64,000 bases of DNA. It comes from a virus. Taxonomy: Duplodnaviria; Caudoviricetes. Shown here in pieces: positions 25,967 to 39,669 of the stretch. Under the pieces are notes generated by a model that was not told the DNA's origin, ran no database searches, and worked only from the letters and a program-made list of their open reading frames with translations. Every line of letters begins with the position of its first letter. The first letter of the stretch is position 1. The stretch is from the IMG/VR virus record IMGVR_UViG_3300035208_004396, one strand, 5' to 3'. Both the position numbers and the translations under genes were made by a program.

Positions 25967-26270
25967 GATGATTCCTTAGTGTTATTTGTCGTTTTTCTTG
26001 ATTTGTGAAATTAGGATCGCCATATTTAGCTAATTTCGTAGATCTTGACTTATTTATGGTATCGAGTCCAGCACATCTCTTAGAACAATACAATCTATAA
26101 CCTTTAACATAGTTTATATAACGTGTAGGTTTGCCACACATTTTACATAGGCCTTGTTTACCTTTGAAGTCTAGATAATAAGATTCGCTGTTATAACCGT
26201 GTTTATAAAGGTGTCTAAGCAACGAATTAACATCATTAAAGGTCTTTTTGCAAAAATTACATTCTATCAT
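25947..26270 (-). CDS. Zinc-finger protein; N-terminal part of a homing-endonuclease-type gene lacking a nuclease domain
   Basis: C2H2 finger plus CKMCG...GY..YCS..C...T...KYG..N. Confidence 0.55.
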   Translation of the reverse strand: MIECNFCKKTFNDVNSLLRHLYKHGYNSESYYLDFKGKQGLCKMCGKPTRYINYVKGYRLYCSKRCAGLDTINKSRSTKLAKYGDPNFTNQEKRQITLRNHHDRRRI

Positions 26271-26312
26271 TTAGCTAGTCCTTATATAAATATACAAAAT
26301 AGGAGTGAAACA

Positions 26313-29219
26313 ATGTCGAAGTATTCTACACCAGACGTGTACTTCAACGAAATCGATCATACAGTTCGTAATAATACCACTGTTGGCGATGGACGAGGTG
26401 CTATTGTCTTTAATGCTGACAAAGGTTATGTAAATCAACGAATTTTAACTACGGGTTATTCTAATTTCAAAACTCAATTTGGTACGCCGACTAACAGTTC
26501 TAATTATGGTCATTTTGCTGCAGAACAATTCTTTGCTAACGGTTCTACACAACTTCTTGGAGTTCGTGCTACTATGGGCGATGAAAGATATGCTTTCATT
26601 CAATACCCCTATAACAGTGCTGGTATAGCTAATACTAATCTGGATTCTACAACTCAAGAATTAGAATATGTAGATTATGAAGGTGAACATAACTTAGTAT
26701 TACTAAATGCTTTTAAGGGAGATTTGAGTACTTATACTGCAGATAACTGGCATTATATTGATAATACAGCAACATTCTTTATGTATTCATACGGGAAAGT
26801 TTCCGATTTTGCTGATTTATATAATGATGGCGCTGATGAAGTCAGAATAGTATATCGTGATTCTAAAAATGCTGAAATTACTGCTAATTCGGGTACATTT
26901 TATAAGATTCCTACTAGTGATAAACTCACAAATTATAACAGATTTGCTCTGAATCAAGCCGGTATAAATTCTTCGCCATTAACTGCTGATGCAACAGGAT
27001 CTTCGGCATATTATCATTTTGATTCTAGTGATAGCATAAATGATACTTCTGCTACTTATTATAAGACTTATTTACATCTTGATGCTGGATATTCGTTGAA
27101 TTCTACTGATATTGATGCTCAATATTATCTCAATTCTGGTGTTTTAACTGGAACTTCTGCTGAATTGACAACGTTATTAAACAATGAATCCATTTTAGGT
27201 TTAACAAGTGCAGATTCTGCATATTCGGCTAATGCTTCGAAATTAGTAGTTGCGGATTGGGATGAAAATCTAGAATTGAAGACCTATTATGTTAATAAAT
27301 CATCTTTTACTTCTCCAAATGTTAGTGGCATAGAATATCGTGAATACTCTCATGGTGATAAAGATTTTGCTCTGTGTATCAATGCTATTTCTAGTATTAG
27401 ATGTGATAATATGACTGGTTCTGATAGTTTTGCTATTTTAGAAGATCTAGCGGATCAATATGGTTTAGCAGTTACGGATATTAACAATTCATCATATTGC
27501 AATTTGAAATATACTGATGCTAAGTCACAAGAGGAAGTAAATTTATTGGTTTATAATGATGGCTTATCTGAAGGATTCGGGGCTTATTCTAGTACACCAA
27601 ATCTATTCATCTTATACCAAGATCAAAATAACTCAAATAAAACTAAAGGTGAAGCCATTTATTATCATAAAGATCCTAAAAATGTTATTTTACCTTGGCA
27701 GATTAGTAAAAATAATGTCCCGGAACTCATTGCACAAAGCACATTAGAGATGTTCAGCGATAGCACGGGAATCTGGTCAGATGGTTATACTCCTACTAGC
27801 ATAGATGAAGAACCGGGCAATGGTGACGTTGAAAGTTATACAGATAAATCTAAGAACTTGGTCATAGCTGCATTAGCTCCAGGGGATTACTTGAATAGAA
27901 TTGGTATTTCAATAATAACACCGGATTGCGAAGATATACCGGCATTGAATGGACCTAATACATTCGATTGGAAATATCTTTTCGATGATGAAGACAAGGT
28001 CGATAATGGTGCAGATAACTTGACTTATAAGAAAGTCTATAAGTTGAATGTTTATGTTCGGAATATAGATCAAGATGAATCTATATGGGGTACTGGTTTA
28101 ACTAGTTTGAATTATGACCCTACCGAATCATTCTATGTGTCTAATGATCCTACGGCAAAAGATTTACAAGGTAATAGCTTATATGTTACTGATGTGATTA
28201 ATGGTCATTCTAACTATATCTACGTTTCTAAGAAATCAGTAGAAACATCTTTCGTATCAAATATAGGGGGTGTTACTACTTATGATATGCCATCCCAAAC
28301 TTATTCTATTTATAGTCTTAGTGGTGGTAAGAATTCTAAATTGAATGATATTAAGCAGAAAACGGCAGCATTACAGCTTTTCGAGGACAACGAGAAGTCT
28401 GATTTCGATATTATATTTAATGTTGAACCGATTGAAAGTTTTACGGGTAAACAAAAATATAAAGCGATGCAAGATAAGATTGCTAATATTGCTATTACAC
28501 GTGGAAAAGATATCGGGTTCATTCAGACCACATCGAAAGCGGCGAAAACTGGTTCATTGATGGTAAGTGAAAGTAAGAATTTCAAATATACTAATGGTTC
28601 TTACGTTGCTGGTTATGGCGGATATGATAAGTCATATAACAGTGACATCAGTGCATGGATTAATATCCCTAAGTCGGTGGCCGGTGCTTGTGCTGAATGT
28701 TTTTGTCAGATTTATTCATATCCCTGGATGGCACCTGCGGGAACAGAACGCGGTGTAATAGCATATTCAGATGGTACTACACCTAAATTGAGTAAATTGG
28801 ATATGGGTAAGTTATATAATCAAAACATCAATACTTCTCGTACTTTCCCAGCTTATGGCGAAACTTTATTCACTCAGAAAACTATGTTGAAGAAAGATTC
28901 CGCACTGAACAGAATAGATGTTAGATCGCTGGTGAATACAATAGAAAAGAACTTATATATATTGCTTTTGCCGTTCATTTACAAGAAAAATACTGCCACT
29001 ACAAGAAGTTCTATGAAATCTACAGTCGAAGATTTATTAGGTAGAATTAAGGCTGGAGAAGGTATAACTTCATATTCAGTAACAGTTAAATCTGATTCTA
29101 ATGATCCGCATTTGGTTTATGTAAACTTGACTATCATTCCGGCCGAATCTATTGAATTCATCGAAGTCAATATCACGTTGGAAAGAGATCAGGGAATAAC
29201 ATTCGCGGAAGCTGCTTAA
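26313..29219 (+). CDS. gp18: Tail sheath protein with large central insertion
   Basis: TPDVY.NEID, FG.P, PWMAPAGTERG, ALNRIDVR, P..SIEFI; TATAAATA and AGGAG upstream of ATG 26313. Confidence 0.95.
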   Translation: MSKYSTPDVYFNEIDHTVRNNTTVGDGRGAIVFNADKGYVNQRILTTGYSNFKTQFGTPTNSSNYGHFAAEQFFANGSTQLLGVRATMGDERYAFIQYPYNSAGIANTNLDSTTQELEYVDYEGEHNLVLLNAFKGDLSTYTADNWHYIDNTATFFMYSYGKVSDFADLYNDGADEVRIVYRDSKNAEITANSGTFYKIPTSDKLTNYNRFALNQAGINSSPLTADATGSSAYYHFDSSDSINDTSATYYKTYLHLDAGYSLNSTDIDAQYYLNSGVLTGTSAELTTLLNNESILGLTSADSAYSANASKLVVADWDENLELKTYYVNKSSFTSPNVSGIEYREYSHGDKDFALCINAISSIRCDNMTGSDSFAILEDLADQYGLAVTDINNSSYCNLKYTDAKSQEEVNLLVYNDGLSEGFGAYSSTPNLFILYQDQNNSNKTKGEAIYYHKDPKNVILPWQISKNNVPELIAQSTLEMFSDSTGIWSDGYTPTSIDEEPGNGDVESYTDKSKNLVIAALAPGDYLNRIGISIITPDCEDIPALNGPNTFDWKYLFDDEDKVDNGADNLTYKKVYKLNVYVRNIDQDESIWGTGLTSLNYDPTESFYVSNDPTAKDLQGNSLYVTDVINGHSNYIYVSKKSVETSFVSNIGGVTTYDMPSQTYSIYSLSGGKNSKLNDIKQKTAALQLFEDNEKSDFDIIFNVEPIESFTGKQKYKAMQDKIANIAITRGKDIGFIQTTSKAAKTGSLMVSESKNFKYTNGSYVAGYGGYDKSYNSDISAWINIPKSVAGACAECFCQIYSYPWMAPAGTERGVIAYSDGTTPKLSKLDMGKLYNQNINTSRTFPAYGETLFTQKTMLKKDSALNRIDVRSLVNTIEKNLYILLLPFIYKKNTATTRSSMKSTVEDLLGRIKAGEGITSYSVTVKSDSNDPHLVYVNLTIIPAESIEFIEVNITLERDQGITFAEAA

Positions 29220-30073: not shown

Positions 30074-30098
30074 ACTAATATATATGTGAAAATAACTA

Positions 30099-30170
30099 TT
30101 GAGAAAGATTTAATAATTTCTTATATTATGATCATTGGAACTGAGATTCCAATCGGCTAATTGACAATTC
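30099..30170 (+). promoter_or_regulatory. Sigma70 promoter with boxB/boxA-like leader (copy 1)
   Basis: TTGAGA-17-TATATT, then ATTGGAA-CTGAGA-TTCCAAT hairpin and TAATTGACAA. Confidence 0.75.
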
Positions 30171-30189
30171 GGAACATTTTCAATCTTTT

Positions 30190-30520
30190 TAGAATTAAAC
30201 TGTAGGCTCAGAAACAGCCATCAGCTAAAGAGTGGCAAAGGTTCCTCCTAGTATAACGGGGACGGTGAAAACTTAGCAAAAGCCCGTTTAAGTCATGTTA
30301 ATTAATAGGACATGATGACATATGCTGGAGGATAATCAATCGATTTGTTACGTACATTCAAACTAGTTAAAAAACTGTGAAATAATACCAAGGCTAATGA
30401 GTGCTAAGTCTGGTCTAAGGTGAAATTTCACAGCCAGAAGATCTCCGGGTTTGATATGTATAGTATACATTCGGGTAAGTTAATTGCTCGAGCCTTTGGA
30501 GTAAAATTACATTTTTTCTA
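30190..30520 (+). ncRNA. ~330-nt structured ncRNA with a 23S rRNA H43/H44 (uL11 site)-like core
   Basis: TGTAGGCTCAGAAACAGCCATCAGCTAAAGA at 30201; closing GGAGTAAAATTACA; many internal hairpins. Confidence 0.7.
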
Positions 30521-30591
30521 TTGAGATTCATCTAATTTTTTCTATATTTCAATTTGTTAAAGATTCAAATCTTAACTGTTAATTGAAATTT
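30521..30591 (+). promoter_or_regulatory. Sigma70 promoter with hairpin and boxA-like leader (copy 2)
   Basis: TTGAGA-16-TATATT, hairpin GTTAAAGAT-TCAA-ATCTTAAC, TAATTGAAATT. Confidence 0.6.
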
Positions 30592-30607
30592 TGGTTTTAT
30601 TTTTTAT

Positions 30608-30691
30608 GCCCAGGTGGTGGAATTGGTAGACACTAGGGACTTAAAATCCCTTGGTCGTAAGATCGTGAGGGTTCGATTCCCTCTTTGGGCA
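30608..30691 (+). tRNA. tRNA-Leu(TAA)
   Basis: Full cloverleaf with long variable arm and GTTCGATTC T loop. Confidence 0.95.
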
Positions 30692-30694
30692 CTA

Positions 30695-30765
30695 TAAGGC
30701 GTGGTTTAGCTGCTACGTCTTAGAAATGGAAAACGTTTGAGCTAACAAACGTTTTAGTTTCCATT
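30695..30765 (+). ncRNA. Kissing-loop two-hairpin RNA, copy 1
   Basis: Loops TTAGCT and AGCTAA are exact reverse complements; GAA junction. Confidence 0.7.
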
Positions 30766-30769
30766 AGCT

Positions 30770-30844
30770 ATATTATTCGTATAATTCTGGCAGTACAATC
30801 GCCTATCGGCAGATTGGTATGGGTTCGAATCCCATATAATATAT
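30770..30844 (+). tRNA. tRNA-like RNA with all-A/U acceptor stem and aberrant anticodon arm
   Basis: D arm GTAT/GTAC, T arm ATGGG-TTCGAAT-CCCAT; anticodon arm irregular. Confidence 0.6.
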
Positions 30845-31013
30845 CTTTTAGTTGAAATAAAATAGAGATTAAAAATCCTTGCCATAAACTTCCTAGATCT
30901 ATAAGGCAAAAGATAAAACGATACGTGAATGAATGTGTAATAAGCATAATCTAGTATATTCACATTATATTGTTTAATCCCCCCGTCAAGTTTTACTGGG
31001 TTCTTGACATTTT

Positions 31014-31088
31014 GGCCGAGTAACCGAATTTGGCATAGGTACTTGTTTCAAACACAAGATTTTGTGGGTTCGATTCCCGCCTTGGCCA
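31014..31088 (+). tRNA. tRNA-Leu(CAA), short variable loop
   Basis: CTTGT-TTCAAAC-ACAAG anticodon arm; 5-nt variable loop. Confidence 0.9.
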
Positions 31089-31092
31089 CTAT

Positions 31093-31164
31093 GCCGTTAT
31101 ATGTCAATGGTTAGACGAAAGGACTTTTAATCCTTGGATCCGAGTTCGAGTCTCGGTAACGGCA
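31093..31164 (+). tRNA. tRNA-Lys(TTT)
   Basis: Full cloverleaf. Confidence 0.95.
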
Positions 31165-31447
31165 CTAATTTTCAGGAAAAAAGATAAAAAACCTCGACTG
31201 GATGTAAGTAAAGAGGGGTTTGACCTTTTCAGATTTTAGACGTAAAATCGATAACAAAAGGTTCTTTTTATACTTAATATAATTTAAGATCTCGATTAAG
31301 TTGAAATAAAATAGAGATTACCACCTAAATTTTCTTAGAAGTTTAGGAAAGGCTGAGTGGTTGAGCACTGACCGAGTACCACTGAAATAATAAAAAATGC
31401 AGTTCGGTCATCATTTTATAGGATTGATAACTATTATGGATAAAACA

Positions 31448-31690
31448 ATGAATAAAAATGAATTTGATGAATTATTCAAGGTTCCTGCTAATATGGATTC
31501 AGATTCATATGAGGACTGGATAAGGAAAAAGTGCATCGATCTTCGAAACGGTATTGACTTTATGATTGAGAATATTGAATATTTGGAGGGTGATGCTGGC
31601 GAATTTCCGTCCGAAAGAGAATCTGTATACGATAAATGTTATTCTAGATATCAGGAGTTATTCGATAATTCAACCGAAAATGTAGATTGA
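31448..31690 (+). CDS. Small acidic hypothetical protein
   Basis: ORF within the tRNA region; start 31436 or 31448. Confidence 0.55.
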   Translation: MNKNEFDELFKVPANMDSDSYEDWIRKKCIDLRNGIDFMIENIEYLEGDAGEFPSERESVYDKCYSRYQELFDNSTENVD

Positions 31691-31692
31691 CT

Positions 31693-31902
31693 ATGAAATA
31701 CAATGGCATAGAACTAGTCGATGTAAGTCAGAAGGAATCTATTACAAATGATGATCCCATAGAAATGATCTGTTGGAATGATGGAGATATTCCAGTCAGG
31801 TGTATAGTTTATGCAATAGTTCCGGGAAGTAGATATCCTGTTATTACTGATTGTAATAGATGCATAGTATTTCAACATTGTGCATATAATAACGTTTTTT
31901 AA
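31693..31902 (+). CDS. Small hypothetical protein
   Basis: Follows the previous ORF; P.EM..W.D....HCA pattern. Confidence 0.55.
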   Translation: MKYNGIELVDVSQKESITNDDPIEMICWNDGDIPVRCIVYAIVPGSRYPVITDCNRCIVFQHCAYNNVF

Positions 31903-31970
31903 AGTTACAGGTAAAAAGAATCACTCCACTATAATATGTCGGTTTCTTGAGAAGGTTCTTCCGACATTTA

Positions 31971-32046
31971 GGCCAGGTAGCCGAATTTGGTATAGGCGTG
32001 GCGCCTAGGACGCCATTTTTTGAGGGTTCGAATCCCTTCTTGGCCA
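31971..32046 (+). tRNA. tRNA-Leu(TAG), short variable loop, C33
   Basis: TGGCG-CCTAGGA-CGCCA. Confidence 0.88.
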
Positions 32047-32080
32047 CTTTTAAGCTGGAATAGTTTGATAAATATAAAAA

Positions 32081-32164
32081 GGAGATGTGTGCGAGTTGGT
32101 TTATGCAGGTAATCCTGAAAATTACTGGTCTTATGGCCCGTAGGTTCGAATCCTACCATCTCCT
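32081..32164 (+). tRNA. tRNA-Ser(TGA), C33
   Basis: GTAAT-CCTGAAA-ATTAC; long variable arm. Confidence 0.9.
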
Positions 32165-32168
32165 CTAT

Positions 32169-32250
32169 GGAAGATTACGCTAAAGGTAAGCGGAAGCTTT
32201 GCTAAAGCTTTGAGGCAAAACTCTTATAGGTTCGAGTCCTATATCTTCCT
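32169..32250 (+). tRNA. tRNA-Ser(GCT)
   Basis: Full cloverleaf with long variable arm. Confidence 0.92.
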
Positions 32251-32253
32251 TAC

Positions 32254-32325
32254 TGCCTAGTCGTATAAAAGCAAGTATAATGGACTTTGAATCCATTGGA
32301 CGGGGAGCGTTACCCTGCTAGGCAA
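32254..32325 (+). tRNA. tRNA-Gln(TTG), variant T loop
   Basis: ATGGA-CTTTGAA-TCCAT; T loop AGCGTTA; U1-A72. Confidence 0.85.
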
Positions 32326-32343
32326 GATTTTTAAAAATAATAG

Positions 32344-32414
32344 TTGAGAAATAAGAATTTCTTTTCTATATTATGATCATTGGAAACGAGATTTCCAATC
32401 GCTTATTGAATATT
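32344..32414 (+). promoter_or_regulatory. Sigma70 promoter with boxB/boxA-like leader (copy 3)
   Basis: TTGAGA-17-TATATT, then ATGATCATTGGAAA-CGAGA-TTTCCAATCG and TTATTGAAT; near-duplicate of copy 1. Confidence 0.78.
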
Positions 32415-32415
32415 A

Positions 32416-32486
32416 CGGAATATGGTGTAATGGTAACACAATAGCTTTGCAAGTTATTTTCCCGAGTTCGAATCTCGGTATCTACA
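32416..32486 (+). tRNA. tRNA-Ala(TGC) with poorly paired acceptor stem (possible pseudo-tRNA)
   Basis: D, anticodon and T arms intact; acceptor CGGAATA/TATCTAC has 3 mismatches. Confidence 0.6.
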
Positions 32487-32490
32487 CTAT

Positions 32491-32572
32491 GCTAGCGATG
32501 CGGAATTGGTACCGCCCCTGACTGTAGATCAGGCGCCTTCGGGCTATGTGGGTTCGAATCCTTCCGCTAGCA
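32491..32572 (+). tRNA. tRNA-Tyr(GTA)
   Basis: Cloverleaf with GCC-TTCG-GGC variable arm. Confidence 0.92.
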
Positions 32573-32575
32573 CTA

Positions 32576-32641
32576 TGAGATTGAATTTGACGGTTCTATC
32601 TCAGAAATGGTTATTATTTTCGTCAAAAAATAATGACCGTT
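32576..32641 (+). ncRNA. Kissing-loop two-hairpin RNA, copy 2
   Basis: Loops TTGACG and CGTCAA are exact reverse complements; same GAA-ATGG junction as copy 1. Confidence 0.7.
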
Positions 32642-32654
32642 ATTATAGTAAAGT

Positions 32655-32727
32655 GACTTCTATAGTATAATTGGTATTACGTGCCACCGTTGCGATGGAG
32701 ATATGTGTTCGAACCACATTAGAAGTC
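32655..32727 (+). tRNA. tRNA-His-like body (G-1:C73) with aberrant anticodon arm
   Basis: 8-bp acceptor GACTTCTA/TAGAAGTC; anticodon region CCA-CCGTTGCGA-TGG has no GTG. Confidence 0.6.
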
Positions 32728-32858
32728 CTAATTTTATTATCTTTTTGGGCATGCTTAGCTGATAACAACATGAAAATCTATCTGATCAAATAATATCTGA
32801 ATAAGCATCGGCGAAAATATGCAACGGGTAGAATAATAAGTTATTTTTTAGGAGAAGC

Positions 32859-32929
32859 TTATGAAATGGCAGCTACCATTTAAAGACTATTAAAGTCTGC
32901 AAAGGTTCGAATTCTTTCTTGCACACTTA
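32859..32929 (+). ncRNA. Second 23S H43/H44-like RNA, with a tRNA T-arm in place of the H44 loop
   Basis: AGCT..GCAGCTACCATTTAAAGA..GC-[AAAGGTTCGAATTCTTT]-GCACAC. Confidence 0.6.
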
Positions 32930-33030
32930 TATAAAAATCCCATACTTAAATGGGCTATATTGATACAATTGGCAGTATAGATAGCGAGAGTTGGGACTTA
33001 GCTCTAAAATAAGAGGTACCAGATTTTTAT

Positions 33031-33103
33031 CGCGGGTGAGTGAAACGGTTTACACATTTGGTTCATACCCAAAAAATAGTCGGTTCGACCCCGACACCCG
33101 CTA
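33031..33103 (+). tRNA. tRNA-Met(CAT), initiator-like
   Basis: C1:U72 mismatch, CGCGGG 5' end; only two G-C pairs next to the anticodon loop. Confidence 0.88.
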
Positions 33104-33115
33104 TTTAAAGTTTAT

Positions 33116-33187
33116 TCCAATGTAGTTCAGAGGTAGAATAAGCGATTGTTAATCGTGAGGTCGGAGGTTCGAATCCTTCCATTGGAG
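33116..33187 (+). tRNA. tRNA-Asn(GTT)
   Basis: Full cloverleaf. Confidence 0.92.
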
Positions 33188-33195
33188 TTTTTTAT

Positions 33196-33291
33196 ACATC
33201 ATCATGCTGCAACGGGTCTTATAAGCCTGTACCCAACAACAAATATGCGCGGCTGGTCTTGGGGCACCGGGTTCGATTCCTGGATGATGTA
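33196..33291 (+). tRNA. D-armless tRNA-like RNA, anticodon TAT (Ile)
   Basis: Acceptor ACATCAT/ATGATGT, anticodon arm CGGGT-CTTATAA-GCCTG, T arm intact, 37-nt variable region. Confidence 0.75.
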
Positions 33292-33315
33292 CTAAGTTTA
33301 GTTATAATCCATTTT

Positions 33316-33388
33316 GACCCCTTGGCGAAATAAGGAACGCGACTGTCTGCAAAACAGTTATGATATGGTGCAATTCCATAAGAGGTCT
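33316..33388 (+). tRNA. tRNA-Cys(GCA)
   Basis: ACTGT-CTGCAAA-ACAGT; U73; variant T loop TGCAATT. Confidence 0.88.
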
Positions 33389-33408
33389 TTTTAATATATA
33401 ATCCATTA

Positions 33409-33482
33409 CGGTCTGTAGCTCAGTACAGTAGAGTACTGGTTTTGGGAACCAGATGTCGTGAGAGCGAAGCTCACCAGACCGA
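33409..33482 (+). tRNA. tRNA-Pro(TGG), variant T loop
   Basis: CTGGT-TTTGGGA-ACCAG; T loop AGCGAAG. Confidence 0.88.
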
Positions 33483-33562
33483 TAATAAATAGAGCTTCTA
33501 CTTTTAAGTTTTGAAGAGCACTTCGAAAAACTCTTTAGGTTGATTAACCTTTGAACGATCAC

Positions 33563-33605
33563 TGTTAGGAATGGTTTACCGGAGTTCGATTCTTCGACCT
33601 AGCAA
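33563..33605 (+). ncRNA. tRNA minihelix-like RNA (acceptor + D-loop-like linker + T arm)
   Basis: TGTTAGG/CCTAGCA, AATGGT linker, CGGAG-TTCGATT-CTTCG. Confidence 0.45.
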
Positions 33606-33840
33606 TATTAAGAATAAAAGCGCAAAATGTGATAAAATCAAGTTTATCATTTCCGATATGTTTAATGATTTCGGCGTTTTTATTTTTTTTAACTATATTA
33701 AGTCCCTTATATAGTGTCCAAGAACAACACTATATTAAAAGTCTGCCGAAAAAGCCTAATGATTATTACTTGGTAATCTAAGGCGATCTGATACACCACG
33801 AGGCTAGATTTAGAGGTATATACGGTGAGATCAGAATTAT

Positions 33841-33915
33841 ACTCGATTAGCTCAAGTTGGTCTAGAGCAGCTGCGTCAGGCAGCAGGGTCATTGGTTCAA
33901 ATCCAATATCGAGTA
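33841..33915 (+). tRNA. tRNA-like RNA with shortened anticodon loop centred on TCA
   Basis: Perfect acceptor, D and T arms; GCTGC-GTCAG-GCAGC. Confidence 0.7.
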
Positions 33916-33920
33916 CTTTT

Positions 33921-34000
33921 GCTCTCGTAGCCACATCGGTCTTCTAAACCGCTAAGTGTAAATGGAGCTGTAAATACAGGTTCGATCCCTGTCGAGAGTA
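33921..34000 (+). tRNA. D-armless tRNA-like RNA, anticodon TCT (Arg)
   Basis: Acceptor GCTCTCG/CGAGAGT, CGGT-CTTCTAA-ACCG, T arm intact, long variable region. Confidence 0.75.
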
Positions 34001-34048
34001 CTAAAAGATATTTATATTTCTTAAATTTAACAAAAACAAAGGAATCTA

Positions 34049-34504
34049 ATGAAAAAGTTAATCGTTTTGTGTTTCATCCTTGTTATTACGGCATGCAGTA
34101 ATAATTATTCTAATGGTGAACGAGTTGGTCTTGTAACTCAATTCTCAAAAACAGGTCTGATTTGGGATAGTTGGGAAGGACAGTTGAATATGACACAGAC
34201 TGGTATGAATAGTTCGGCTGAGTTCGATTTCAGTTTGGATAACGATATGCCAGAATTGCAAGATAAGCTTATCCCGATACTCGATTCAGCAGCTCATTAT
34301 GGTTGGAAAGTATCGTTAAGTTATACTGAAGTAACTGGATATAATTGGTTGAATAATAGAGGTTGTACAAATCATTTTATTAAAAATGTAGTTGTTTTGG
34401 ATAAGAATCCTATGCATAATGTATTTAATAAGGATACTTTGAATAAAAGTGATACCATTTATGTAGGACATCGTGATACCATTTATGTAGTAATAAAGAA
34501 GTGA
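34049..34504 (+). CDS. Phage lipoprotein
   Basis: Signal peptide with lipobox ITAC; YS.G.R.G....FS..G....WEG.L motif. Confidence 0.75.
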   Translation: MKKLIVLCFILVITACSNNYSNGERVGLVTQFSKTGLIWDSWEGQLNMTQTGMNSSAEFDFSLDNDMPELQDKLIPILDSAAHYGWKVSLSYTEVTGYNWLNNRGCTNHFIKNVVVLDKNPMHNVFNKDTLNKSDTIYVGHRDTIYVVIKK

Positions 34505-34510
34505 GTTTTA

Positions 34511-34581
34511 GCCCTTATAGTTCAATGGTAAAACACCAGATCTGTAATCTGGCTTTCTTGGTTCGAGTCCAGGTTTGGGCG
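34511..34581 (+). tRNA. tRNA-Thr(TGT), C33, two U-U acceptor mismatches
   Basis: CCAGA-TCTGTAA-TCTGG. Confidence 0.75.
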
Positions 34582-38337: not shown

Positions 38338-39669
38338 CTAAAAGTTATCAAATTCATCAGCTATATTTTTAGCTTCTGTAGCTTTTATTTCTTCAATTGA
38401 ATTAGCTGCTATATCATATAACTGTTGTTTTGAGATATTTACTCCGATCGGTTTCAATTCAAATTTATTTGCACCTTCGCGAGTTTTAATGAGCTTTATC
38501 GTGAAAATGTTGTTTTGATTCTGTTCTTCTGATTGAGTAATCGATAAAACTTCATCTGCTTTTTCAGCCATACCGATAGAATTGCCTATATCTTTAAGCT
38601 CCAATGACATAGCATCCAGAGCATCTCGTTTAACCTGTGCAGCAGTTATAATTGGGAATCCTTCTGCCATAGCTAACGATTTCACCTGATCTGTAATCAT
38701 TGCTAATTGAGTAGACATATTAACTTTGCTATCTATTTTACCATTTGGAACCATACAACCAACATAATCTACCATTACGACTTGTGGTATGAAATGACAT
38801 TTTTCTCTTAATTCTTTTATATTACTTCGTAATGCCAATGCTGATTTTTCACCACCAGGAAACTCTTCTATTTTTAGCTTTTTAGCAATAATCTGCTTTT
38901 TTTCGTTCCATCTTTTCATGAACGCATCTTTTTTGATGAATAGATACTCATCTTCAGTCAAATCTAGCAAATTCTGCAATACTCTTTGGGCAATTTTAAT
39001 TTTACCATCTTCAAATGTATAGTATAAAACATCATAGCCATTTCGGATCAAATTAGCCGATAAAGCACACATAGTCATAGTTTTACCAACGTTAGTTGGA
39101 CAAAGTAAGAAAGTAAGAGTTTTCTTAGATAATCCCCCTTTAAGCATCTTATCTATGGTTATTAAACCGGTTTTAATATGTGCATCCTGAGCATGACTTT
39201 CGTCATAAATCTGTTCTATATCATCAATCAGATCGTAACCTAATTTTGAATCTAATGAGAATCCTTCGCTATCGCTTACATCCTGAGCATAATCCGATTC
39301 CATGTTTTCATCATTAGAATTGACATATTTCATGATATTCATAACATTCTGATACAAACGTTTCTTTTTCATGAAAATTTCGATATTGTGAATGATATAT
39401 TTTGTATTTGCTGTATCAGTATCTATCGAATTAGCTTTCCTGTATAAATCCCATTCAGTAGGATCATTTTTGAATAAACTCGATATTTCGAAATCATTTG
39501 GGAAAACTTGATATTTAGTGTAAAAACCAGACAACTTAGAAATTACATTTTTGTAAACTTCATCATCATTAAACCATTCTGGATCTATTACGGGCATTAC
39601 CTTTTCACAAATCTCTTTATTAGATATAATGGCTTTTAACATAACAAGCTCTAAATTATTCATAAACAC
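38338..39669 (-). CDS. gp41: Replicative DnaB-like helicase
   Basis: TG...ID..L.GG, PTNVGKT, YYTFE, VDYV, ITAAQ..R, K.R. Confidence 0.93.
   Translation of the reverse strand: MFMNNLELVMLKAIISNKEICEKVMPVIDPEWFNDDEVYKNVISKLSGFYTKYQVFPNDFEISSLFKNDPTEWDLYRKANSIDTDTANTKYIIHNIEIFMKKKRLYQNVMNIMKYVNSNDENMESDYAQDVSDSEGFSLDSKLGYDLIDDIEQIYDESHAQDAHIKTGLITIDKMLKGGLSKKTLTFLLCPTNVGKTMTMCALSANLIRNGYDVLYYTFEDGKIKIAQRVLQNLLDLTEDEYLFIKKDAFMKRWNEKKQIIAKKLKIEEFPGGEKSALALRSNIKELREKCHFIPQVVMVDYVGCMVPNGKIDSKVNMSTQLAMITDQVKSLAMAEGFPIITAAQVKRDALDAMSLELKDIGNSIGMAEKADEVLSITQSEEQNQNNIFTIKLIKTREGANKFELKPIGVNISKQQLYDIAANSIEEIKATEAKNIADEFDNF

Follow-up and report, generated by a model that had tools for sequence, protein, structure and literature searches.

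A GAC-like block and a tRNA 3′ end joined within a phage tRNA array: a probable relic of a GAC-mimic gene

In this study, we describe an element in the tRNA array of a phage that combines two sequence affinities, one to the GTPase-associated centre (GAC) of 23S rRNA and the other to the 3′ end of tRNA-Leu. This element (hereafter copy 2) is best read, if with some reservation, as a degenerate fragment of a GAC mimic fused to a tRNA 3′ end and not as another mimic that works. Two-thirds of it, on the 5′ side, would come from a gene of the phage GAC-mimic family, of which the closing strand, the upper H43, the H43 3′ strand and the UUUAAAGA junction would be left. The remaining 3′ third would be the last part of a class II tRNA gene of the Leu type, from the T loop and the 3′ strand of the T stem to the acceptor 3′ strand and the trailer. 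An earlier note had described the element as an rRNA-tRNA chimera. As a statement on ancestry this stands, a GAC-type block being found together with a tRNA-type T arm, but a working GAC fold is not indicated. The string given in that note (TAGG...CTTA) is indeed present on the + strand; it really spans 32849-32929 (about 80 nt), the start at 32859 having been placed 10 nt too far right.

The window, that is the whole stretch of 64,000 nt analysed here, is a phage contig of the myovirus type with a G+C content of 30% (Table 1). Its tRNA array comprises 13 tRNAs called by ARAGORN and several additional ones called by Rfam, some of them unusual. Copy 2 sits on the + strand, where 300 nt separate the tRNA at 32656-32727 from tRNA-Met at 33032. 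Other duplications and tRNA-like fragments are found in the array, such as repeat D5 and a minihelix near 33564-33602. Near-identical copies of this phage were found in ENA and Logan assemblies (L037-L040), and most sampled words of the window are present in several landfill, groundwater and wastewater runs. Among the near-identical strains there are zero substitutions within the element, so that they give no covariation data.

Table 1. Positions of the element, of its parts and of the neighbouring features in the window
Feature	Position	Strand	Description
Tail sheath gene	26199-29219		
Copy 1	about 30187-30515	+	Member of the phage GAC-mimic RNA family; covariance model, family profile and clade profile
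tRNA array	30608-34581	+	
tRNA-Leu(UAA) gene	30608-30692		Same array
tRNA-Leu(UAG) gene	31971-32047		Same array
T-rich leader TTATTTTTTAGG	32841-32852	+	Might pair with 32926-32937, as the 5′ strand, in a weak A/U-rich closing stem
H43-like hairpin	32856-32874	+	AGCU, 11-nt loop UAUGAAAUGGC, AGCU
Competing hairpin	32864-32881	+	AAAUGG-CAGCUA-CCAUUU; consumes the GAC block; pair probability 0.31-0.39
18-nt GAC block GCAGCTACCATTTAAAGA	32869-32886	+	H43 3′ strand and UUUAAAGA junction; E. coli 1071-1088
Small hairpin	32884-32898	+	AGACU-AUUAA-AGUCU; variable-arm position of the family; probability about 0.33
T-arm-like hairpin	32899-32924	+	GC / AAAGG-UUCGAAU-UCUUU / CUU / GC
Segment homologous to a tRNA 3′ end	32904-32931	+	T loop, T-stem 3′ strand, acceptor 3′ strand, trailer CACTxxTA
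DnaB-like helicase gene	38338-39669		

Copy 1 clearly belongs to a family of phage RNAs imitating H42-H44 of 23S rRNA with a variable arm. It is a true GAC mimic, as the earlier note implies: it scores 27.2 bits with the GAC covariance model (E=8.5e-7) and is also found by the family profile (E=5.4e-11) and by the profile of its own clade (E=3.7e-12). Its closest relatives are L149, L168, L178 and L180, with which it has in common the CAGCUAAAGA variant and a compensating C-G pair at 1057/1081. A degenerate H43/junction pattern matched 40 loci in IMG/VR (L142-L181); once a real 23S gene (L173) was excluded, the family counts 39 phage loci, which are situated among phage tRNA genes. Their 5′ core (..rGGAUGUwGGCUUAGAAGCAGCCAyCAkyUAAAGAGU..) is followed by 94-310 nt of unrelated sequence, then by a 3′ core (yUUUGGCGUAAyAGCACAC) and by a strand complementary to the bases preceding GGAUG. 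In this closing stem, 89% of the cells are paired (24 unique members, 23 distinct strands) versus 55% with shuffled partners. Without exception, the 24 unique members have an H43 loop of 7 nt, a lower H43 stem able to pair, a GU following AAAGA, and GGCGUAAyAGCACAC. In structures of the 58-nt GAC, the loops of H43 and H44 build the tertiary fold and the uL11/thiostrepton pocket.

This family is not covered by any Rfam 15 family, and our literature searches for phage rRNA or GAC mimics found no description of it. Copy 1 adds a member to a widespread and uncatalogued phage RNA family, undescribed as far as we could find, that copies the uL11/GTPase-factor site. The family 5′ core (H43/junction) is also present, unannotated, in cultured jumbo phages, as judged from the matched core alone, and the family should therefore be accessible to experiment. 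Carriers include Cronobacter GAP32, Pectobacterium CBB, Xanthomonas XacN1, Serratia BF, Yersinia fHe-Yen9, Aeromonas 4_4572 and Pseudomonas pf16, with example sites at JN882285.1 289521-289556, KU574722.1 285719-285753 and AP018399.1 150550-150586. In one IMG/VR locus (L156, 1503-2470, - strand), a GAC-mimic RNA, a tRNA and a ROOL RNA (337.6 bits) are consecutive in a single array.

The GAC likeness of copy 2 resides in its 18-nt block. As claimed in the earlier note, GCAGCTACCATTTAAAGA is identical to the E. coli 23S sequence (reference taken from rrlH) at 16 of 18 positions, and this match is above chance. Indeed, at up to 3 mismatches the 18-mer has two matches in the window, copy 1 and the element, where 0.11 are expected (two of 100 shuffles reached two). 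An nhmmer profile of 50 genuine GAC sequences (alignment A2, i.e. 49 unique GAC segments of metagenomic 23S genes and E. coli) ranks copy 1 first (E=1.1e-5) and the element's block second (E=0.0061), the next match in the window having E=6.6. The profile of the 24 family members, which is independent of the element since the members were found with a pattern from copy 1, also places the block second in the window after copy 1 (E=0.02). With both profiles, only 32869-32886 of the element matches. Furthermore, the exact 18-mer is found together with the AAGCU 5′ strand in genuine metagenomic 23S genes (L050 and L129). Both mismatches to E. coli, as well as the AGCU/AGCU upper H43, are thus natural variants of the 23S GAC. 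As the match lies on the sense strand of a 4.5-kb array that already carries copy 1, we are confident that the block is truly GAC-derived.

The 3′ third of the element has another source. Positions 32904-32931 are identical at 23 of 28 positions (82%) to the 3′ end of tRNA-Leu(UAG) at 32025-32052 (z=9.3), a score reached by none of 300 shuffles. Besides the T loop and the 3′ strand of the T stem, the match covers the beginning of the acceptor 3′ strand, the discriminator and the trailer. The earlier note had proposed that the H44 loop is replaced by a TTCGAAT T-loop hairpin. This hairpin is present (AAAGG-TTCGAAT-TCTTT at 32901-17, flanked by GC/GC), but since the match continues through the acceptor 3′ strand and the trailer, the T arm is a piece of a tRNA gene and not a convergent or grafted T-loop. 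In common with the array's tRNA-Leu genes (UAG and UAA), the element has the T loop GGTTCGAAT, the T-stem 3′ strand, the acceptor 3′ strand CTTG.., the 3′ signature of the array (discriminator A, then CT in the trailer) and a T-rich leader. It differs from them by lacking acceptor pairing, an anticodon arm and a variable arm. The acceptor partner is absent, with at best 4 of 7 pairs (with GGAGAAG, by eye), and the equivalent of the near-invariant G53-C61 pair of tRNAs is a G.U. A permuted or split tRNA was also considered and rejected, no acceptor 5′ strand being seen downstream by eye.

The simplest origin of this arrangement would be a deletion or an illegitimate recombination between a mimic gene and a class II tRNA gene downstream of it. 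A join at a short common GGTTC, with which the T arm begins, would delete the variable arm and the H44 loop together with most of the tRNA, and would leave the 5′ part of the mimic followed by the last 30 nt of a Leu-type tRNA. We favour this reading because class II tRNAs follow the mimics of the clade, as tRNA-Leu(UAA) follows copy 1 and likewise in L149 and L168, and because both copies carry GCAAAGGTTC near the junction, 3 nt downstream of AAAGA in copy 1 (30235-44) and 12 nt downstream in copy 2 (32899-908). The exact breakpoint is ambiguous, as GCACAC fits the family 3′ consensus and a tRNA acceptor strand equally well. The parent gene would be one other than copy 1. Indeed, the block of copy 2 is of the canonical CAUUUAAAGA type, versus the CAGCUAAAGA type of copy 1, and matches the clade profile of copy 1 only at E=6.4; it follows that copy 2 is not a recent sister or duplicate of copy 1. 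The pairwise similarity of the two copies is not significant by itself (54 of 1000 shuffles), and a local alignment of 30074-30700 with 32700-33031 did not rise above shuffles. Lying on the sense strand of the tRNA operon, the element is probably transcribed within the precursor, after which it would be discarded as a spacer or trimmed at its tRNA-like 3′ end. From these sequence comparisons we infer the deletion, the transcription and the lack of function.

If the element is debris, as is probable, its direct importance is small. It would nevertheless illustrate the turnover of GAC-mimic genes in tRNA arrays through duplication or acquisition, truncation and fusion to neighbouring tRNA genes, and such fusions could explain how the variable arm of the family is exchanged. 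It also amounts to a built-in negative control, in which the most conserved 18 nt of the mimic are kept and both conserved loops are gone.

The main argument against a relic comes from two double changes that preserve pairing. The upper H43 keeps all four pairs through a G-C to A-U change at 1062/1076, and the T stem is kept paired through a G-C to A-U change at 51-63 relative to tRNA-Leu(UAG). Both could reflect past selection on the hairpins. As both replace G:C by A:T in a genome with 30% G+C, they are also what would be expected from an A+T bias.

The earlier note went further and saw in copy 2 a divergent second GAC-like RNA under selection for its fold. If this RNA is functional, a four-way junction would be built from the closing stem, the H43-like hairpin, the short arm and an H44 stem whose cap is the T-loop hairpin; it would still present the H43/junction surface to the partner of copy 1, and would gain processing or stability from its tRNA-like end. 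The compensatory pairs in the upper H43 and in the T stem speak for this reading, as do the significant block on the same strand of the same array as copy 1 and the probability of 0.9 of the GC/GC pairs. The element is also collinear with the family, from the closing strand through GGA, H43, UUUAAAGA and the arm position to GC...GCACAC and the second closing strand. It resembles the family members in its location within a phage tRNA array on the tRNA strand, in its block (17/18 to members such as L145), in its upper four H43 pairs, in the hairpin that the earlier note had rightly noticed at the position of the variable arm, and in GCACAC followed by a strand that could partly pair with the leader. 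The GC...GCACAC around the T-arm hairpin aligns with GGC-GUAAYA-GCACAC of the family. We nonetheless regard this reading as unlikely.

Indeed, copy 2 has lost both family-invariant loops, which correspond to the tertiary fold and the uL11/thiostrepton site of the GAC, as well as the lower H43 stem. While H43 of the family and of rRNA reads GGCU, a 7-nt loop UAGAAGC and AGCC, the loop of copy 2 has 11 nt, and no stretch of at least 8 nt complementary to this enlarged loop was found in the array. The 5′ strand of the lower H43 has suffered two 1-nt deletions (covariance-model alignment), and for want of these two nucleotides the stem, in which the family has (A/C)UGU.. with ..CA(U/G), cannot form. 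The UUUAAAGA junction is present but is followed by CU after AAAGA, where all 24 members have GU. Of the 3′ core only GCACAC remains, the tRNA T-arm hairpin standing in place of the H44 GUAAYA hexaloop; a profile of the family 3′ core found no match near the element, although this profile is insensitive and missed the diverged 3′ core of copy 1 too. A closing stem would be weak: judged by eye in the family register, 4-5 of its 7 A/U-rich pairs form, and UAGG/CUUA has an ensemble probability of 0.02. Altogether, the H43 region is separated from the family consensus by about seven events in 45 nt, with indels at invariant positions, and the sequence 3′ of the junction is wholly replaced.

The structure-aware comparison gives the same picture. 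By the GAC covariance model (R1, 50 genuine sequences), copy 2 is at background, with 9.6 bits and E about 1 versus the 27.2 bits of copy 1; it takes rank 10 in the window, behind nine equal or better matches, several of which lie inside ORFs. The H42-H44 fold put forward in the earlier note is thus not recovered. The AGCU/AGCU strands (32856-59 and 32871-74), described there as a compensatory change in H43, do exist, but the helix has a pairing probability of 0.03-0.04 in copy 2 versus 0.85-1.0 in copy 1 and six members, and the competing hairpin is stronger. In the T-arm-like region, the alternative pairing UGCAA/UUGCA is favoured, and the extended 3′ hairpin is the best-supported structure. 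The structure proposed in the earlier note has -7.1 kcal/mol, 6 kcal/mol above the MFE of -13.3, and the folding energy of the element is no better than that of shuffles (z-score of -0.7). In comparison with the 23S GAC itself (H42-H44; E. coli 1051-1108, the uL11/thiostrepton 58-mer), the element reaches 18/18 with some environmental 23S sequences, but it stands outside an rRNA gene, conserves neither H44 nor the H43 loop, and has no Rfam LSU match at E<=10. Judging from these models, neither GAC-like folding nor uL11 binding by the element would be expected.

The earlier note had argued that two differently elaborated versions of one scaffold reflect selection on the fold. The lost loops, the background score and the unpredicted H43-like helix do not bear this out, and no homologue of the element was found in IMG/VR, in JGI metagenomes or among the fetched related contigs. 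Homologues conserving the junction, to which that note had looked for confirmation, are missing from IMG/VR and JGI metagenomes, and a second copy of the block is present in none of the 39 family loci. The pattern CATTTAAAGA-N5-35-GGTTCGAAT gave 34 loci in IMG/VR, none of them related (a coding-gene family, ordinary tRNAs and chance matches). In JGI metagenomes, GCAGCNNNCATTTAAAGA-N5-35-GGTTCGA gave 95 loci, all genuine 23S genes with a 48-nt spacing, which we reused as the source for the GAC model.

Neighbouring proteins led to no diverged relative carrying the element's locus. The best relatives of the sheath protein in IMG/VR (44%) have no tRNA arrays, the 262-aa and 151-aa ORFs have no relatives in IMG/VR, and none were found for the 84-aa ORF of the array. 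A search of 5.8 billion proteins returned the identical contigs (L037-L040), an 80% relative by the sheath protein (L042), represented in the Logan runs SRR20000428 and SRR35904034, whose contig ends at window position ~30148, and a 57% relative (L041) without an array; relatives of the 151-aa protein are L043-L045, of which L043 has a tRNA array with no GAC-like match. In the sequencing runs, the element occurs only as identical copies, in X13 and X18 contigs. X7 and X15 do not cover 32792-32942 and are hence not evidence of absence, and X18 is a metatranscriptome whose low-depth contigs cannot show expression. In a 2.6-kb X18 contig of a related array, the tRNA end at 32730 is joined to a Leu(CAA) gene over 35 other letters and the element is absent at that junction, while in an X15 contig of this related array 32730 leads back to about 31911. 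We give little weight to these joints, for which a likeness of 80% and sides of 33 and 31 nt were accepted.

Copy 2 could also be a working, minimised partner of copy 1, a small four-way-junction RNA that has kept only the H43 3′ strand/junction surface together with the tRNA T-arm and 3′ end, which seems to us rather improbable. If it were so, the tRNA-processing machinery would excise, possibly CCA-tail, and stabilise copy 2, the phage would imitate the base of the ribosomal stalk in two different ways, and the T-arm would exemplify a natural swapping of modules between a tRNA and an rRNA mimic.

On the opposite side, the element might be a decayed class II (Leu-like) tRNA pseudogene throughout, with a coincidental likeness to the GAC block. 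AGCU/AGCU and the GG-containing 11-nt loop would then be an old D arm, and UUUAAAGA would go back to the anticodon loop of a gene like tRNA-Leu(UAA). Besides having a 3′ end that is clearly of tRNA origin, the element has about the length of a tRNA, and tRNA-Leu(UAA) is preceded by the identical leader TTATTTTTTA (repeat D15). MAFFT aligns it collinearly with three Leu genes and puts TTAAA on the anticodon loop of Leu(UAA). The T-rich leader TTATTTTTTAGG is similar to that of tRNA-Leu(UAA), and also to the closing strand in members of the clade, for example L149. Without the leader, the 5′ body bears no significant similarity to any tRNA-Leu (z=-0.4 to 0.1). Rfam found no tRNA match at E<=10, whether in the 6.5-kb search or in one restricted to 171 nt, and ARAGORN called no tRNA at the element at the default, 80% or 70% thresholds (introns allowed at default and 80%). 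Moreover, a chance GAC match of equal quality is expected only 0.006-0.02 times per window, and, scaled by length, about 30-fold less in a 4.5-kb array strand with a GAC mimic. We regard a pseudogene throughout as unlikely.

We give still less credit to a functional tRNA-like module that would belong to the non-canonical tRNA-shaped RNAs of the array (a minihelix and D-armless tRNA-like genes) and have nothing to do with GAC mimicry. With its T arm and 3′ end, it would offer a handle to the enzymes of tRNA processing, or act as a decoy against a host enzyme that targets tRNAs. The array does contain other odd T-arm elements (33196-33292, 33564-33602 and 33920-34000), and both the retained 3′ signature and the support for the extended 3′ hairpin would suit such a module. 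On the other hand, the poor acceptor-type pairing and the change of G53-C61 to G.U do not, and the GAC block is left unexplained. Finally, a translated mini-gene (AGGAG, 6 nt, ATG at 32861, MKWQLPFKDY, stop at 32891-32893) is highly improbable, for despite a textbook RBS spacing, similar to that of several phage ORFs such as those starting at 1117, 2182 and 26313, about eight chance AGGAG-N5-9-ATG are expected in the window (a rough estimate from base composition), the frame has only 10 codons and no homologue, and AGGAG corresponds to the family GGGAUG after a 1-nt deletion. This 10-codon ORF region (32850-32893, + strand) overlaps the H43-like part and is probably due to chance.

Two known systems offer a comparison. 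Within the tRNA cluster of phage T4, the stable RNAs 'species 1 and 2' (rnaC and rnaD) are non-tRNA small RNAs presumably released by tRNA-processing enzymes. The setting in an array is alike, but the T4 RNAs are demonstrated stable species while the element is known here from its sequence. The L10 leader (Rfam RF00557) is a ribosomal-protein leader that mimics rRNA, providing a look-alike site outside the ribosome. The idea of an rRNA look-alike is common to both, while the element has neither an adjacent r-protein gene nor an Rfam match.

Several other features of the array deserve mention. At 33564-33602 (+), the sequence looks like a minihelix made of an acceptor and a T arm, in which GTTAGGA pairs at 6 of 7 positions with ACCTAGC, an 8-nt linker and the T arm lying between them; neither tRNA tool calls it. 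Two long tRNA-like genes at 33196-33292 and 33920-34000 (+) have acceptor and T arms with odd cores; ARAGORN calls them at a relaxed threshold only, and Rfam gives a weak tRNA-Sec match (22.5 bits). At 33841-33916 (+) lies a tRNA with a UCA anticodon, labelled SeC by ARAGORN, which is possibly an opal suppressor; a general recoding is not apparent, the genes of the window being long ORFs under table 11. Furthermore, tRNA-Leu(UAA) and the 60-nt hairpin element after it (30603-30753) are 83% conserved in L043 (3045-3195), an otherwise distant phage array that also has a tmRNA. This hairpin element is thus conserved beyond the phage of the window.

Within the array, a 151-aa ORF (34049-34504, + strand) has a lipoprotein-like N-terminus (by eye) and more than 470 homologues, one of them in a Chitinophaga genome. 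These homologues hint at a host or a gene donor among the Bacteroidota. An 88-nt repeat with 72% identity occurs at 30082-30169 and 32327-32414 (+), before copy 1 and before the tRNA at 32420, respectively. It contains a sigma-70-like promoter (TTGAGA-17-TATATT), a strong hairpin and CTAATTGACAATT. A third, weaker copy at 32939-32970, downstream of the element, consists of a diverged hairpin and CTATATTGATACAATT. Immediately 3′ of the element, at 32930-32937 (+), TATAAAAA agrees at 7 of 8 positions with the T4 late-promoter consensus TATAAATA and is followed by the hairpin at 32939-32954. A new transcription unit, with tRNA-Met and the later genes, may begin here.
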